Shown piece after piece: positions 452 to 4,812 of a DNA stretch of 4,812 nucleotides. The stretch lies in contig JBBCAV010000373.1 in NCBI GenBank assembly GCA_051382305.1, forward strand, positions 1 through 4,812, written 5' to 3'. The notes under the pieces are model-generated. The model made no database searches. It was given only the letters and a program-made list of their open reading frames with translations, and was not told where the DNA came from. A program made the position numbers and the translations under genes. This DNA comes from Bdellovibrionota bacterium FG-2. Lineage in GTDB: Bacteria > Bdellovibrionota > UBA1018. How positions within the stretch are numbered: position 1 is the stretch's first letter; each line of letters opens with the position of its first letter.

Positions 452-1564
452 ATGGATTTTCACGGTTACAGCTCGATGGATCTGCACTGCCTCTTTCGAA
501 TGGAGGAACGCTTCAAGTCGCAACAGGTTCTCGCTAACGCTGAGAGCCGAGGAGATATTCCAAAAGCAACACGCCTTGCTAGAGGAAAAAAAGAGATCCG
601 CAAATGGACAACCGAGCAGCTTCCCGAAATCGGAAAGCGGTTCGGATTTATTCCAAACAGAAAGATGCCACAGCAAGTCATTTCGGTTTTTACCCAAAAG
701 GGCGGAACTCTTAAGACAACACTTTCTCATGCATTCGCACGGGTATTAGCTCTTCACGGAATCCGCGTTGTGGTTGTTGGTCTCGACATTCAAGGGTCAA
801 TAACTAAGACCATGCTCCCTCCCCCGACAAACATGGACACGCTGGCTGATATTCTTGCGTACAATAAAGCGATCAAGGGTCTTTACCACTTCTTTAATCA
901 GCCCGAAAAATCAAGACGCATTGAAGACGTTATTCATCGGACCGACCTCCCTACTCTCGATATAATTCCAGAGACCCCACAGCTCAACGATCTCATCTTG
1001 TTAATTAACCAAAAGACGCTTCGAGAGTTCCGTTTCCGGGACGACTTACTACCGTACCTCAGCAACTATGATGTAGTCCTTTTTGACAACGGACCGAGCT
1101 GGAATTCTCTAGTTGAGAACTCGCTCGCTTGCTCAACTACACTGATCCAGCCCGTGGGCTGCGACGTGGGAACGTTTCAAGTACTTGACGGCAATATGGC
1201 ACAAGTCGAAGATTTTCGCGTAAAAGCAAAGATCACTTGGGATAGTCAACTCTTGGTCCCGACCCTTCGCGAAAACACGAAGCTCTCACAACAAATTTTA
1301 GGTGCCTATATTGCTCAATATCCAGCTCGCCAACTGCTCACAAATACCATTAGAAAGAGCGTAGCTGGCCAGGAAGCCCTCTATTTGAACCGTTCGGCTT
1401 TAGAACATGATCCGCGTTCAGACCTTTCAGATGATTACGCAAATGTAGTTCGAGAGATTTGGGACCGCATTTATTCAACTGAGGCGCAGAAGCACACAAC
1501 ACAGGAAGTGACCGCACCCAGCTCTTTGCGGCACCCATTTACTGAAAGTGTTGCGCAGGTTTAA
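452..1564 (+). CDS. parA: ParA/Soj-family partition ATPase with N-terminal extension (type Ia-like, probable HTH)
   Basis: 370 aa. Deviant Walker A VISVFTQKGGTLKTT (K83-T90), A' box VVVGLDIQGS, LDIIP motif and Walker B YDVVLFDNGPS. About 70 aa precede the ATPase fold (…LANAESRGDIPKATR…RKWTTEQL) and resemble the MerR-like/HTH extension of plasmid ParA/SopA/RepA proteins. Good RBS. Confidence 0.92.
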   Translation: MDFHGYSSMDLHCLFRMEERFKSQQVLANAESRGDIPKATRLARGKKEIRKWTTEQLPEIGKRFGFIPNRKMPQQVISVFTQKGGTLKTTLSHAFARVLALHGIRVVVVGLDIQGSITKTMLPPPTNMDTLADILAYNKAIKGLYHFFNQPEKSRRIEDVIHRTDLPTLDIIPETPQLNDLILLINQKTLREFRFRDDLLPYLSNYDVVLFDNGPSWNSLVENSLACSTTLIQPVGCDVGTFQVLDGNMAQVEDFRVKAKITWDSQLLVPTLRENTKLSQQILGAYIAQYPARQLLTNTIRKSVAGQEALYLNRSALEHDPRSDLSDDYANVVREIWDRIYSTEAQKHTTQEVTAPSSLRHPFTESVAQV

Positions 1565-1567
1565 TTT

Positions 1568-2956
1568 ATGGCACTGCAAGGAAACCCATTTTTAGGAAAG
1601 CTTAAGATCCCCGCCCCGGATCTAAGTCGCATTCCTGAAACACCATTTGAAAGCAAATCTTCCAACTTGGAAACCCCACTTCCCCTGATTGTTACCGCCC
1701 CCAAGGAAGAGCAGCATAAAGATGCCGGCACTAACCACATAGCCACCCCCAATAAACGGGTAGCAAACGGGTATCAAACAGATAGCAAAGAGGTAGCTAA
1801 ACGGGTAGCAAACGGGTATCAAACAGATAGCAAAGAGGTAGCTGCCTCAAGTATTCATCATCATCCTTTGTCGGAGGAAAAACTAAAACAGGTAGCACAA
1901 CGGGTAGCAGAACAGATAGCAAATGGAGAGCAAACGGGTAGCAAAGAGGTAGCTAGCGCAACTTTTGAGACCCTTGTTGGCAAGGAGCGCGGATTGCTCC
2001 TTTTTATCATCGAAGATTGCCAGCTTAACGGCGACTTAAAAACGGCACCACTTACTCTTGAACGCATCAGCGAAGCACTGGTTTGCAGCTCTAATCGCTC
2101 AAAAAACGTTATTCAGCGCCTTATAGAAAAGTCTTTTATCCATCGCGCAGAAGCCAAAACGGGCCGAGGTGGATGGACACGTTTTGGTGTCTCAAAAGAG
2201 ATCTTTCAAAAGGTCTTACTGAGAGAAACGGGTAGCAAAGGGGTAGCAAACGGGCATCAATCGGGTAGCAAAGAGGTAGCTAATCAGGTAGCACAACGGG
2301 TAGCAGGCGGCCCTAGTAGTAGTAGTGTTCTAATTAAAGAAGATTTTAAAACTACTACTACTGGCGAATCAGAACTTCTAGAAACCACAGGAACCCAGTT
2401 AACACCTGAGTGGCTGACTGTGGATTACTCCGATCTTTCTGAAATTGGATTTACTCAAACCCACCTAGTCCAAATTATCCGGCAAGGGAAACTCCAACCT
2501 GCTGAAGTCCAAGACTCTATTTATTACTTTGCGTTCGATCTTAAGCGGAATGAAAAGGGGAAAAACCTCAATGGACCCCCCATTAATTTTTTTATGGGGA
2601 TTCTTCGGAGAGGAGGACCGTATACACCGCCTGATAATTACGAGAGTTCGGCAGATGAAGCTCGCCGAAAGACCCGAGAGTTCAAAGAGCGCAAGGAGCG
2701 CGAGCGACAAGATGAAGATCAAAAATTGATGACTCTCGAATTTGCAGAGTGGAGAAGGGGGCTTTCAGCCGCCGAAATTATCGGTCTATTACCTGAACAC
2801 GCGCGGAAACCAGGACAAGTCCAAGAATCAGTATTAAAAATTCATTTTGAAGAAAACGTTTGGCCGGAGCGCGCGCAAGAGCTTTTGGGGATGACCAAGC
2901 TTGATCGCGACGAAGTTTCACGCCAGATCGATCAGTCACTAGGGGAAAAACTCTAA
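1568..2956 (+). CDS. Winged-helix DNA-binding protein, putative replication initiator with intragenic iterons
   Basis: 462-aa ORF starting 3 nt after the parA stop. aa ~132-219 read like a wHTH (LVGKERGLLLFII…LTLERISEALVCSSNRSKNVIQRLIEKSFIHRAEAKTGRGGWTRF). This is flanked by repeat-encoded segments, then an SSSS…KTTTT linker and a helical C-terminal region. The ORF itself is well supported; the initiator function is inferred from architecture (lambda O/RepC-like internal origin). Confidence 0.65.
   Translation: MALQGNPFLGKLKIPAPDLSRIPETPFESKSSNLETPLPLIVTAPKEEQHKDAGTNHIATPNKRVANGYQTDSKEVAKRVANGYQTDSKEVAASSIHHHPLSEEKLKQVAQRVAEQIANGEQTGSKEVASATFETLVGKERGLLLFIIEDCQLNGDLKTAPLTLERISEALVCSSNRSKNVIQRLIEKSFIHRAEAKTGRGGWTRFGVSKEIFQKVLLRETGSKGVANGHQSGSKEVANQVAQRVAGGPSSSSVLIKEDFKTTTTGESELLETTGTQLTPEWLTVDYSDLSEIGFTQTHLVQIIRQGKLQPAEVQDSIYYFAFDLKRNEKGKNLNGPPINFFMGILRRGGPYTPPDNYESSADEARRKTREFKERKERERQDEDQKLMTLEFAEWRRGLSAAEIIGLLPEHARKPGQVQESVLKIHFEENVWPERAQELLGMTKLDRDEVSRQIDQSLGEKL
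1754..1842 (+). repeat. 11-bp direct-repeat array A (8 units; perfect 45-bp tandem duplication)
   Basis: Units aaacgggtagc, aaacgggtatc, aaacagatagc, aaagaggtagc (1754-1797), a 1-nt T spacer, then the same four units (1799-1842). 1753-1797 is identical to 1798-1842. Confidence 0.97.
1886..1953 (+). repeat. 11-bp direct-repeat array B (6 units)
   Basis: aaacaggtagc 1886, (a) caacgggtagc 1898, (a) gaacagatagc 1910, aaatggagagc 1921, aaacgggtagc 1932, aaagaggtagc 1943. Confidence 0.95.
2226..2304 (+). repeat. 11-bp direct-repeat array C (7 units)
   Basis: aaacgggtagc 2226, aaaggggtagc 2237, aaacgggcatc 2248, aatcgggtagc 2259, aaagaggtagc 2270, (t) aatcaggtagc 2282, (a) caacgggtagc 2294. Confidence 0.95.
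2315..2362. repeat. 12-bp perfect inverted repeat around an AT-rich spacer (candidate DNA-unwinding element)
   Basis: AGTAGTAGTAGT (2315-2326) and ACTACTACTACT (2351-2362) are reverse complements. The 24-bp spacer has 20/24 A+T and the element starts 10 bp after array C. Confidence 0.85.
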
Positions 2957-2975
2957 AAAAACAAAACCAACTGAC

Positions 2976-3010
2976 GCTATCGCAGCGATTATAGCTATTA
3001 AAAGAAAGGA
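2976..3010 (+). promoter_or_regulatory. Palindromes and RBS upstream of the TA pair (possible operator)
   Basis: ATCGC-A-GCGAT (2979-2989) and ATAGCTAT (2991-2998) palindromes, then purine-rich AAGAAAGGA (3002-3010) before the ATG at 3016. The operator role is inferred from typical type II TA autoregulation. Confidence 0.4.
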
Positions 3011-3015
3011 AGATT

Positions 3016-3264
3016 ATGAAACCACAAGACGAAAATTTGACCGCTTTAGAGGGCAGAATAACGACTGATACAGCGTTATGCGGTGGCCGCCCATGTATTC
3101 GAGGGATGAGGATTCGTGTCTCGGACGTATTAGATTTGATGGCTTCGGGATTGAACGCTCAGCAGGTTCTCGAAGAGCTTCCTAATCTCACAGAAGAAGA
3201 CGTGCAGGCCTGCCTTGCCTATGCTTCACGAAGAGTAGATCATCCAACGGTGCAGGTAGCATGA
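3016..3264 (+). CDS. DUF433-family putative antitoxin (VapB45-like)
   Basis: 82 aa with the typical DUF433 pattern RITTDTALCGGRPCIRGMRIRVSDVLDLMASG…EELPNLTEEDVQACLAYA. Its stop overlaps the next start (ATGA, 3261-3264). Confidence 0.92.
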   Translation: MKPQDENLTALEGRITTDTALCGGRPCIRGMRIRVSDVLDLMASGLNAQQVLEELPNLTEEDVQACLAYASRRVDHPTVQVA

Positions 3265-3608
3265 TTTTTTGGGTCGACGAGCAGATATCTCCGAAATTTG
3301 CCGGATGGCTCACTCAACAGTTTCAAGTTGAAGCCCATTCGGTGGGGACTCTGGGGTATTCCAGTACCGGGGATGATGAAATTTTCAAAAAAGCGCGTGA
3401 TGCTAAAGCAGTCGTGATCACCAAAGATCGCGATTTCCGCGAGATGGTTTTGCAACAAGGGGCGCCTCCGCAAGTGATTTGGGTGACATGCGGGAATACA
3501 TCTACCGCGCGACTTCAGGTTGTTTTCGCGAAAGCTTTTCCGCTGGCGCTTGAACTTTTAAGGGGTGGAGAAGTATTGGTTGAGGTAACGGATTCCCCCG
3601 TACGATAA
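3261..3608 (+). CDS. DUF5615-family PIN-like putative toxin (VapC45-like)
   Basis: 115 aa with PIN-like acidic motifs MIFWVDEQIS, GDDEIF, VVITKDRDF and the PPQVIWVTCGNTS motif. It is translationally coupled to the DUF433 gene, its usual partner. Confidence 0.9.
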   Translation: MIFWVDEQISPKFAGWLTQQFQVEAHSVGTLGYSSTGDDEIFKKARDAKAVVITKDRDFREMVLQQGAPPQVIWVTCGNTSTARLQVVFAKAFPLALELLRGGEVLVEVTDSPVR

Positions 3609-3613
3609 ACTTT

Positions 3614-4237
3614 ATGAATGTTGCGACCTATTCGCGCGTAAGCACAACAAAACGCGATCAGAAACCTGAAATTCAAGTCCAAGAGCTTCGGCGCTATTGC
3701 AAGGCGCGAGGGTTTAAAGTCGTTCATGAGATCACTGACCGTGCTCGCGGCGGAACCGATGACCGCCCAGGATTAAAACAACTTCTTCAACTCGTCCGCG
3801 CGCGGGAGGTGGACGCCGTTATAGTCGTAAAAATGGACCGCCTTTTTCGCTCCCTCAAACACTTGGTTAATACGCTTTCAGAATTCGAAGCCTTGGGGGT
3901 TAAGTTCATCGCGACACGCGACCAGGTAGACCTCACCACCCCCGCCGGCAGACTCTTCATGCAAATTTTGGGAAGCCTCGGAGAGTTTGAGCGCGAGCTA
4001 ATCCGTGAGCGGATTATGCTGGGCCTTGAGTATGCGAAAAGCCGCGGCAAAAAACTCGGGCGTCCTAAGAAAAATGATTACGCAGAAGTCCAAAAACTAA
4101 GAGAGCAGGGGAAGAGCTACCAGCAGATTGAAAAGGCGTTAAAGCTTTCTTCCGGCTCTGTTTGGCGCGCTATTCAGGCGACCCCCAAAAAACGGCTTTC
4201 TAAAAAGCCCCAAGACGCGCGATCAGCGAACCCGTAA
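3614..4237 (+). CDS. Small serine recombinase (resolvase/invertase family) with C-terminal HTH
   Basis: 207 aa. Catalytic YSRVST motif, RPGLKQLL, VVKMDRLFRS, E-helix FERELIRERIMLGL, LGRP linker and HTH (GKSYQQIEKALKLSSGSVWRAI). It starts 5 nt after the toxin stop. Confidence 0.95.
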   Translation: MNVATYSRVSTTKRDQKPEIQVQELRRYCKARGFKVVHEITDRARGGTDDRPGLKQLLQLVRAREVDAVIVVKMDRLFRSLKHLVNTLSEFEALGVKFIATRDQVDLTTPAGRLFMQILGSLGEFERELIRERIMLGLEYAKSRGKKLGRPKKNDYAEVQKLREQGKSYQQIEKALKLSSGSVWRAIQATPKKRLSKKPQDARSANP

Positions 4238-4272
4238 GGGGTAGGGGTACCCGCAAATCCTATCAAAAAAGC

Positions 4273-4315
4273 AAAACCCCAGATCATCGCTAGTCCCGAT
4301 GAATCTGGGGTTTTT
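4273..4315. terminator. Long hairpin, probable (bidirectional) intrinsic terminator; may alternatively be a recombinase binding site
   Basis: AAAACCCCAGAT-CATCG (4273-4289), 7-nt loop, CGATG-a-ATCTGGGGTTTT (4297-4314). This gives a 17-bp stem with one bulge, a T-run on the 3' side and an A-run on the 5' side, 35 nt after the resolvase stop. Confidence 0.55.
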
Positions 4316-4812
4316 AAAACTCAGAAGTGACCACCCCGAAATCAAATGTTTCCGGGGCGGGAAACGGTTTTGTACGAATCGTTGCTATGCCCATGTATAG
4401 GGTCGGGTCCGAAAAAGTTTCATTATGGTTGCGTTCGAGTGTTTCTTTTTAGGTTTCGTGTTGATCGTTTATCCTATCGGGAATGCAACAGCGGCTCGAT
4501 GATGGCAAGGTGAGCTGCAAGCCGTGGTGAAAAGGAAAGAGGGCGAAGCGATAAGATGGAAAGCGTGAAGTGAGAAGGGTTGCGAGATAAAGTGTGCGGA
4601 GATTTTGAAGAAGATGTTATGTTTTGAGTTTGGCTTTTGTTCTGTTTAGGTTTCTTGTTTTGGTTAAGGTTGTTTGAGCTTGTAGGTCGGGTAATTTATT
4701 GGGAGGCAAGCAGGGGATGGGATATCTCCCCACCCTAAAAGACATGGTTTGCTGCGCCCCCCATACCCCCTCTGACGGACCTGCGGCCCGTTGGAAAACC
4801 GGGAAAGGGTGA

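Follow-up and report, generated by a model that had tools for sequence, protein, structure and literature searches.

The window analysed here, a stretch of 4,812 bp from Bdellovibrionota bacterium FG-2, is an entire contig (G000:C373), and its genes and sequence features are listed in Table 1. It harbors a partition ATPase gene (parA) and, directly behind it, an open reading frame (ORF; hereinafter gene X, with X for its product) that encodes a winged helix-turn-helix (wHTH) domain and contains three arrays of short repeats. The parA product matched the Pfam family AAA_31 (E 5e-23) and, below the cut-off of that model, partition_RepA (E 7e-20); its residues K83, G84, G85 and K88 were invariant across 26 sequences. 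X had no match at cut-off in Pfam or NCBIfam, which bears out the original prediction, made from the sequence of this window, that the protein lies outside the named Rep families. Amino acids 276-440 of X were modelled as a confident helical domain, and whole-model structure searches returned generic wHTHs only.

Table 1. Positions of the genes and sequence features of the window (aa, amino acids; pLDDT, predicted local distance difference test).
Feature	Position	Strand	Remarks
parA	452..1564	+	370-aa Walker-type partition ATPase with N-terminal extension; stop 3 bp upstream of gene X
Gene X (462 aa)	1568..2956	+	ORF directly behind parA; proposed fused ParA adaptor and replication initiator
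N-terminal peptide of X (aa 1-27)	1568..1648	+	Candidate motif for binding or activating ParA
Array A, 8 units (2 x 45 bp)	1754..1842	+	Proposed centromere or copy-control sites; kept in short forms
Array B, 6 units	1886..1953	+	Proposed centromere or copy-control sites
wHTH domain (about aa 130-219)	1954..2225	+	Swappable specificity cassette
Codons K179-N180-V181, recognition helix	2102..2110	+	Positions co-varying with unit bases 6, 9 and 10
Array C, 7 units	2226..2304	+	Ends 10 bp upstream of the AT element; candidate origin iterons
AGTAGTAGT...AT-rich spacer...ACTACTACT inverted repeat, encoding SSSS...TTTT	2315..2362	.	Proposed unwinding or helicase-loading element
Conserved all-helical C-terminal domain, long helix at its end	2393..2887	+	Proposed replisome-recruiting domain; model pLDDT 91
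DUF433 and DUF5615 (PIN-like) pair	3016..3608	+	Pfam matches
Small serine resolvase	3614..4237	+	Pfam Resolvase, E 2e-42

Exactly 21 units were found at ≤3 mismatches to AAACGGGTAGC, in arrays of 8, 6 and 7 with a spacing of 11-12 bp, and a gap of 272 bp (1954-2225) separates array B from array C. At ≤2 mismatches, 20 matches were detected in the window (19 within the arrays and one at 318), compared with a mean of 1.1 and a maximum of 5 expected from 200 dinucleotide shuffles. Unit count and shuffles thus confirm the 21 iteron-like units, three arrays and period described in the original prediction. Its placement of arrays A and B before, and of array C directly after, the wHTH stretch holds as well, as the gap was modelled as a confident wHTH (pLDDT >90 from about aa 131 to 220). 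The units are direct repeats and not palindromic, array A is a perfect 45-bp duplication, and the repeat-coded stretches of X mostly had pLDDT <50, i.e., they are disordered in the model. The units are spread over all three reading frames (12/5/4), and the observed lag-11 self-similarity of arrays A, B and C was reached in 0, 0.38% and 0 of 5,000 synonymous recoding trials, respectively. Since the recoding control seldom reaches this self-similarity, the repeat is a DNA feature and not a by-product of a peptide repeat. The original prediction had considered that homologues might conserve a peptide repeat and not a DNA repeat; in addition to the recoding control and the three frames, the retention of the arrays in 74 of the 81 loci with a full wHTH (≥10 units, ≥3 behind the wHTH; duplicates included) shows otherwise. 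Six or seven array C units were present in 50 of the 72 loci having at least 8 upstream units. The spacing from array B to array C was 283 bp in 37 of 59 loci, a value set by the length of the wHTH and hence not counted in favour of helical phasing.

The AT-rich segment expected behind array C was also confirmed: positions 2321-2360 (77.5% AT) tie for the most AT-rich 40-mer in the window. This tract is bracketed by an inverted repeat (2315-2334/2343-2362; z -4.1 against 200 shuffles), which adds to the earlier description. The corresponding SSS...TTT stretch, encoded by an AGT...AT-rich...ACT element, was found in 76 of 83 distinct loci. Serines of the run were encoded by AGT in 79% of cases versus 17% elsewhere in the gene, and threonines by ACT in 89% versus 20%. 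The spacer of the element was 9-27 bp long and averaged 88% AT, and in most loci the element started 7-10 bp after the final unit. As judged from these sequences, the element is selected as DNA. Such an arrangement would be expected of iterons beside an unwinding element.

Homologues of X numbered 206 in a word-index search, and the family comprised 2,341 clusters at 50% identity, 1,048 of these at E ≤1e-30. X matched 142 of 72,556 plasmid records (Piscirickettsia, Legionella, Bdellovibrio, Cardinium, Bandiella and others) and was annotated as a hypothetical protein throughout the plasmid records listed; no match was found among 50,697 phage records, and two loci came from viral contigs. Within the host phylum, 28 of 401 genomes carried it, frequently in multiple copies. 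The gene immediately upstream of X was parA in 69 of the 71 loci with enough flank, a count that leaves out 22 further loci whose flank was too short. ParB_N was absent from all five complete plasmids carrying X, in a scan whose control was positive in 10 of 14 genomes, and from six element contigs of the window's genome, where it was present only on two other contigs. Six copies of the X family were found in that genome bin (G000: the window, C260, C188, C313, C208 and C275). The four complete copies, including the window, have differing unit consensuses, that of C260 being close to the window's, while C208 is a fragment. The wHTH is missing from C275 and from a further locus, L010, as a deletion between arrays would leave them.

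To compare the recognition helix with the repeat unit, eight loci belonging to another wHTH clade or having a 10- or 12-bp period and one locus lacking the C-terminal domain were dropped, followed by near-duplicates. The remaining 47 non-redundant loci hold 38 different units, with position and period constant. Mutual information between residues and bases peaked at K179 (z 13.3), N180 (z 10.4) and V181 (z 15.4); the best z among 154 C-terminal columns was 4.4. The top-ranking 10-residue windows by partial correlation overlapped the helix without exception (0.49, versus 0.25 for the best window elsewhere). In these loci, N180 was paired with G10 in 7/7 cases versus 0/40 without it, A181 with C10 in 5/5 versus 0/42, and K180 with G9 in 9/9 versus 0/38, and each of the three rules changes 3-5 times on a tree built without the helix. 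A held-out set of 18 loci was obtained from 34 hits after removal of training matches, duplicates and unphasable units, its loci being incompletely independent of each other. In this set, K180-G9 held in 4/4 loci with a single exception among the other 14 (p 0.0016), and A181-C10 in 2/3 (p 0.02). The earlier idea that X binds repeats within its own gene is thus backed comparatively, as the arrays persist in homologues and unit sequence co-varies with the recognition helix at residues 179-181; on this sequence evidence, X very probably binds its own repeats. Five loci (L017, L018, L019, L022 and L030) form a clade with a different wHTH and 10-bp units, each with two or three reversed intragenic units.

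The N-terminus of X followed a different partner. Across 50 loci, its first 30 residues tracked ParA (r 0.71, versus 0.22 for the wHTH and 0.23 for the C-terminal domain). The N-terminal peptide was near-invariant in 17 proteins with differing wHTHs and was unshared in 13 pairs with a similar wHTH but distant ParA. L017, L022 and L030 share the peptide with the window, and their ParA is 87-88% and their wHTH 15-16% identical to the window's. Compared with five loci, the first 26 codons of X showed 9-14 synonymous and 0-3 non-synonymous changes, and conservation drops abruptly past them; by this pattern of substitutions the peptide is under purifying selection. According to one source, ParA partners use disordered N-terminal tails of aliphatic and basic residues (PMC12462528). 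A predicted complex of a ParA dimer (with ATP and Mg) and residues 1-32 of X, run without controls, had a score of 0.00 and a peptide pLDDT <50 and was used neither way. Judging from the co-variation of the peptide, X quite probably acts as the adaptor of ParA.

Short forms of X were recovered by plasmid searches, and no shorter homologues of aa 100-225 were found among 12 candidates. Five short forms on complete plasmids end right after the wHTH. In all five, arrays A/B and the wHTH are retained, and neither array C nor the AT element nor the C-terminal domain is present. Upstream of parA, the three short forms checked carry their own unit in 18, 19 and 8 copies (versus ≤0.25 in base shuffles), and a separate divergent wHTH gene was located nearby in four of four checked. 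Matches among the divergent genes were to RP-C (E 4e-4, below the cut-off) and to HTH_36. Read most simply, the short form would serve purely as an adaptor with a centromere of its own, and an origin and an initiator domain are additions of the long form. Upstream repeats of this kind were present in pBdHM1 and absent in pBdHAGR4. The short-form cassettes, parA plus a wHTH protein of 240-290 aa, lie at L133:30217-31162, L131:48958-49913 and L132:38574-39333, with 8-19 units upstream of parA and an unannotated divergent wHTH gene adjoining. Relatives of the Legionella-type divergent wHTH gene, a candidate separate Rep, were found on 34 plasmid records. Expanded forms were also observed (L088:3681-5843 on pBdHM1, 720 aa; L090:4617-6332, 571 aa), which carry about 20-32 paired units before the wHTH and no array after it.

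Evidence for an initiator role came from six circles of 5.9-11.9 kb. L037, L071 and L056 close via 127-bp terminal repeats, L063 (with L065; 8,853 bp) and L012 (about 6,363 bp) are tandem dimers, and pBdHAGR4 is a closed 11.9-kb plasmid from a cultured Bdellovibrio. In an all-against-all comparison, only ParA and X were common to all six. No Rep or ParB family was identified among their scanned ORFs, and a search of the circles for alternative wHTH Rep candidates gave no match; the other genes encode resolvases or tyrosine recombinases, relaxases, toxin-antitoxin pairs and cargo. Replic_Relax/MobC was considered as a shared Rep and rejected, being absent from L037 and L012 and lying beside a coupling protein in pBdHAGR4. 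Cumulative GC skew of eight circles did not point consistently to gene X.

A sister element in the same genome (C181; L135:2865-5144) encodes a ParA 48% identical to the window's, followed by a protein of 421 aa with a related N-terminal peptide, whose 14 best matches among 106 N-termini were all of the X-family type. This protein contains a Phage_rep_O domain that scores just above the cut-off and is flanked by repeats. The slot behind a related ParA is therefore taken here by an initiator of a recognised type. In order, the element carries 7-8 tandem 18-bp repeats, the Phage_rep_O domain, further related units and an AT-rich tract, and the one homologue found for the 421-aa protein has a different N-terminus. 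Within the X family itself, 21 of 106 members had weak matches to a 'replication initiation O-like' PHROG. The parA-X pair is also carried by pPSLF89-3, for which a paper reports that no replication protein, origin or iterons were found (PMC6963756), and by Cardinium plasmid A, whose replication mechanism is called unknown in a published description (PMC10117132). The initiator role assigned to X in the original prediction is thus supported by X being the sole shared non-ParA gene on the six circles and by the lambda-O-type protein in the C181 slot, and the long form of X probably initiates replication.

Taken together, we infer that parA and gene X would form a two-gene replicon of small low-copy plasmids in which X does two jobs. 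Judging from the residue-base co-variation, the wHTH would bind the 11-bp unit with one monomer per helical turn. X lined up along arrays A and B would constitute a centromere complex and contact the cognate ParA through its N-terminal peptides, taking over from ParB. On array C, by analogy with lambda O, X would open the neighbouring AT-rich element framed by the AGT/ACT inverted repeat, and the C-terminal domain may then bring in the helicase machinery of the host, leading to theta replication as at the origin within the lambda O gene. Recombination between arrays may swap or delete the cassette of wHTH and repeats, giving rise to new incompatibility groups and allowing several plasmids per cell; a swap of the wHTH cassette was seen in the L017 group and deletions in C275 and L010. 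We lean, by a little, towards X combining both functions, ParA adaptor and initiator: arrays A/B would be its centromere, and array C with the AT element its origin. The idea of an origin within the repeats had therefore to be narrowed: array C with the AT element fits it, but it was incomplete, as the short forms keep arrays A/B without the origin parts, and intragenic repeats alone do not imply an origin. Of the two roles once offered for arrays A/B, copy control or centromere, the evidence points to the latter. Whether parA-X represents a new class of two-gene replicon, in which one wHTH protein is both initiator and ParA centromere adaptor and holds origin and centromere in its own gene, appears evenly balanced. 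This reading would include a wHTH that, flanked by repeats, is exchanged as a cassette and follows a legible residue-to-base code, and a front end of ParA, peptide and arrays that can also occur alone or joined to other initiators (lambda-O type on C181).

Several observations weigh against the dual role. Terminal overlap, which would point to a circle, was looked for at the ends of the window contig and not found. Upstream of its own parA there is no significant repeat cluster, only scattered weak sites. Array C or the AGT/ACT element is missing in the long forms of pBdHM1, the Psal-182 plasmid, Cardinium, L025 and L042, and the Cardinium X gene shows no repeats. The window protein had no match to any initiator PHROG. 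Structure searches, proposed earlier for both parts of the protein, recovered the wHTH and gave no clear match for the C-terminal domain (best Z 5.4), a result that leaves a DnaD- or O-type fold possible; weak leads for this domain were DnaD of phage PM1 (E 2.0) and Atlas leads all under 0.9, Bac_RepA_C (0.82) among them. pLPL and pPSLF89-3 hold a long-form X plus a second wHTH protein of the kind found on the short-form plasmids, and Cardinium p_A has Toprim and VapE-like genes; X need therefore not be the initiator of these plasmids. The divergent wHTH genes beside the short forms are themselves only candidate Reps. A tyrosine recombinase is encoded on L037 and L071, which could be excised integrative elements. 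Physical linkage could partly explain the tracking of ParA by the peptide, and N-termini are dissimilar in some pairs whose ParA is >60% identical. The helix rules were drawn post hoc, after removal of 9 of the 74 loci, and independent pairs on well-supported branches number 1-2, too few for significance. In the held-out set, N180-G10 (2/4, p 0.2) and K/R179-G6 (10/15, p 0.07) were not significant.

It is unlikely that X is a ParA adaptor only, a wHTH counterpart of the type Ib adaptors or TubR, with all arrays serving as centromere or operator and replication running through another gene, an RNA primer or host factors. The short forms show that such a role exists alone, second candidate Reps are at hand on pLPL and pPSLF89-3, the C-terminal domain has no clear structural match, and, according to one source, mycobacteriophages have parABS-linked replicons without a Rep protein (PMC7157519). 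However, an adaptor alone does not account for the loss, in five of five short forms, of the C-terminal domain together with array C and the codon-locked AT element, for the lambda-O-type protein in the C181 slot, or for six small circles that share no other candidate. The converse, that X is an initiator only, with arrays A/B as handcuffing or titration sites and ParA either regulating initiation through X or using an unseen partner, is decidedly unlikely. Soj acts on DnaA as a regulator of initiation, and the iteron-type layout with its AT element and the O-like PHROG leads are what such a protein would show. Auxiliary iteron arrays set the copy number in known replicons, as one paper describes (PMC6090056). 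In contrast, short forms without the C-terminal domain remain behind parA with large upstream arrays, the complete X plasmids examined have no ParB (0/5), and the N-terminal peptide is under purifying selection and tracks ParA.

It is very improbable that the module serves an integrative or phage-plasmid element in which X acts in transient replication after excision. The tyrosine recombinases on L037 and L071, the phage tail and capsid genes of the Piscirickettsia plasmids, the two X loci from viral contigs, and the recurrence of the window's first 127 bp on other contigs are consistent with it, but many closed plasmids carry X (the 142 records above), some X circles have just a small resolvase or relaxase, and the phage records gave zero matches. 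That the repeats are neutral slippage or a peptide linker with no DNA role is largely refuted and has next to no probability left. Array A is a recent perfect duplication and the repeat-coded regions are disordered, as slippage or a linker would have it, but the units occupy three reading frames and the recoding control fails to reproduce them. Position and period are fixed across phyla while the sequence changes with the helix, and the short forms have their own units also in non-coding DNA upstream of parA.

Downstream of gene X, the DUF433 and DUF5615 pair is presumably a toxin-antitoxin stability module, and the small serine resolvase has a probable role in multimer resolution; its DNA is about 93-95% identical on the sister contigs C181, C260 and C313. 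The region after it (4238-4812) is non-coding and strongly G-skewed, is common to C181 (93%) and C260 (87%), and is possibly a res site or transfer origin. The first 127 bp of the window recur as an identical or near-identical sequence on C229 and C260 and as shorter pieces on four further contigs; with much higher depth in run X1, they may be a repeat or an element end. Contigs of run X1 equal the window at 117-1782, 1814-2340 and 2314-3084 with zero differences, and X1 may be the source sample; runs X2 and X3 covered the window only partially. A promoter and terminator scan and an Rfam search of the window gave nothing above chance. On pBdHAGR4, a MAT-family fibre gene, a bAvd-like gene and an unlisted reverse transcriptase ORF lie together (L128:8136-10850), which looks like a diversity-generating retroelement on an 11.9-kb Bdellovibrio plasmid.

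The analysis names a candidate gene, origin and centromere for the X plasmids and for at least 1,048 strongly matching sequence clusters. If true, it would fill a gap in how plasmids of Bdellovibrionota, Piscirickettsia, Legionella, Cardinium and Bandiella replicate, and the fusion of initiator with ParA adaptor would tie replication to segregation within a single molecule. Nature supplies many helix-repeat pairs, with which a protein-DNA recognition code can be tested directly, and pBdHAGR4, coming from a cultured Bdellovibrio, is available as a test system and may yield native vectors that are compatible with each other. In the literature covered, which comprised articles outside subscription journals and without supplements, no description of the X family or of a fused initiator and ParA adaptor was found; the gene table of PMC6963756 could bear on the novelty of the family. 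Some X plasmids bear the MOB-suite labels rep_cluster_1053 and rep_cluster_866, and the X locus may already be an anonymous MOB-suite typing marker. Wolbachia pWCP (PMC13734603) and the Acinetobacter small-peptide replicon (PMC11142715) were considered as precedents and set aside, as both differ from parA-X.

Among known systems, lambda O is an initiator of the wHTH type whose gene contains iterons and an AT-rich tract, both placed behind the part for the DNA-binding domain. A published source likewise puts the lambda replication origin within gene O (PMC7157519). Gene X likewise has array C and the AT element after the wHTH, and the wHTH of X aligned with the O-type protein of C181 (hhalign E 1.6e-4, probability 50%). 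Phage_rep_O itself had no match in X; two of 106 members matched at E ≤0.01 (best 5e-4), and only the C181 protein reached the cut-off. Unlike lambda O, with its quasi-palindromes of about 18 bp, X has 11-bp direct units, arrays before the wHTH, a ParA-linked N-terminal peptide, a plasmid parA operon and no P-like loader gene. In repABC, as one paper describes it, the ParA gene comes first and the initiator last, the origin lies in the RepC gene beside an AT-rich region and is without iterons, and the DNA-binding domain is MarR-like (PMC6090056). The parA-X operon shares this order and a candidate origin in the initiator gene next to an AT-rich region, but it consists of two genes only, just 3 bp apart, without a RepB/ParB gene. 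RP-C or RP-C_C was not matched at E ≤0.01 in X or the 106 members (25 of 26 families shown), and no Rfam antisense RNA, a feature of repABC, was found in the X locus.

Type Ia ParABS differs in that the X plasmids examined have no ParB CTPase partner and that the units are direct, with no palindromic parS. The type Ib systems (ParF/ParG, delta/omega) share features with parA-X: ParA is followed by a non-CTPase DNA-binding partner with an N-terminal tail (the tail as described in PMC12462528), and the candidate centromere consists of tandem direct repeats, located upstream of parA in short forms. In contrast to type Ib, the partner is a wHTH protein of 240-720 aa and not a small ribbon-helix-helix protein, the repeats are intragenic, ParA is large and N-terminally extended, and the long forms have additional parts in array C, the AT element and a C-terminal domain. 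TubR is a wHTH protein that binds iteron-like repeats (tubC), and the X wHTH matched its structure with Z 8.0, tied with many wHTHs. Iteron plasmids (Rep_3, including P1, F and pPS10; TrfA) have phased direct repeats beside an AT-rich element as well as auxiliary arrays. Gene X has phased direct repeats next to an AT-rich element and extra arrays too; it differs in its single wHTH, its intragenic candidate origin and the lack of a separate ParB, and no Rep_3 or TrfA domain was matched in X or its family members. The module thus resembles lambda O, repABC and type Ib/TubR in parts and belongs to none of them.

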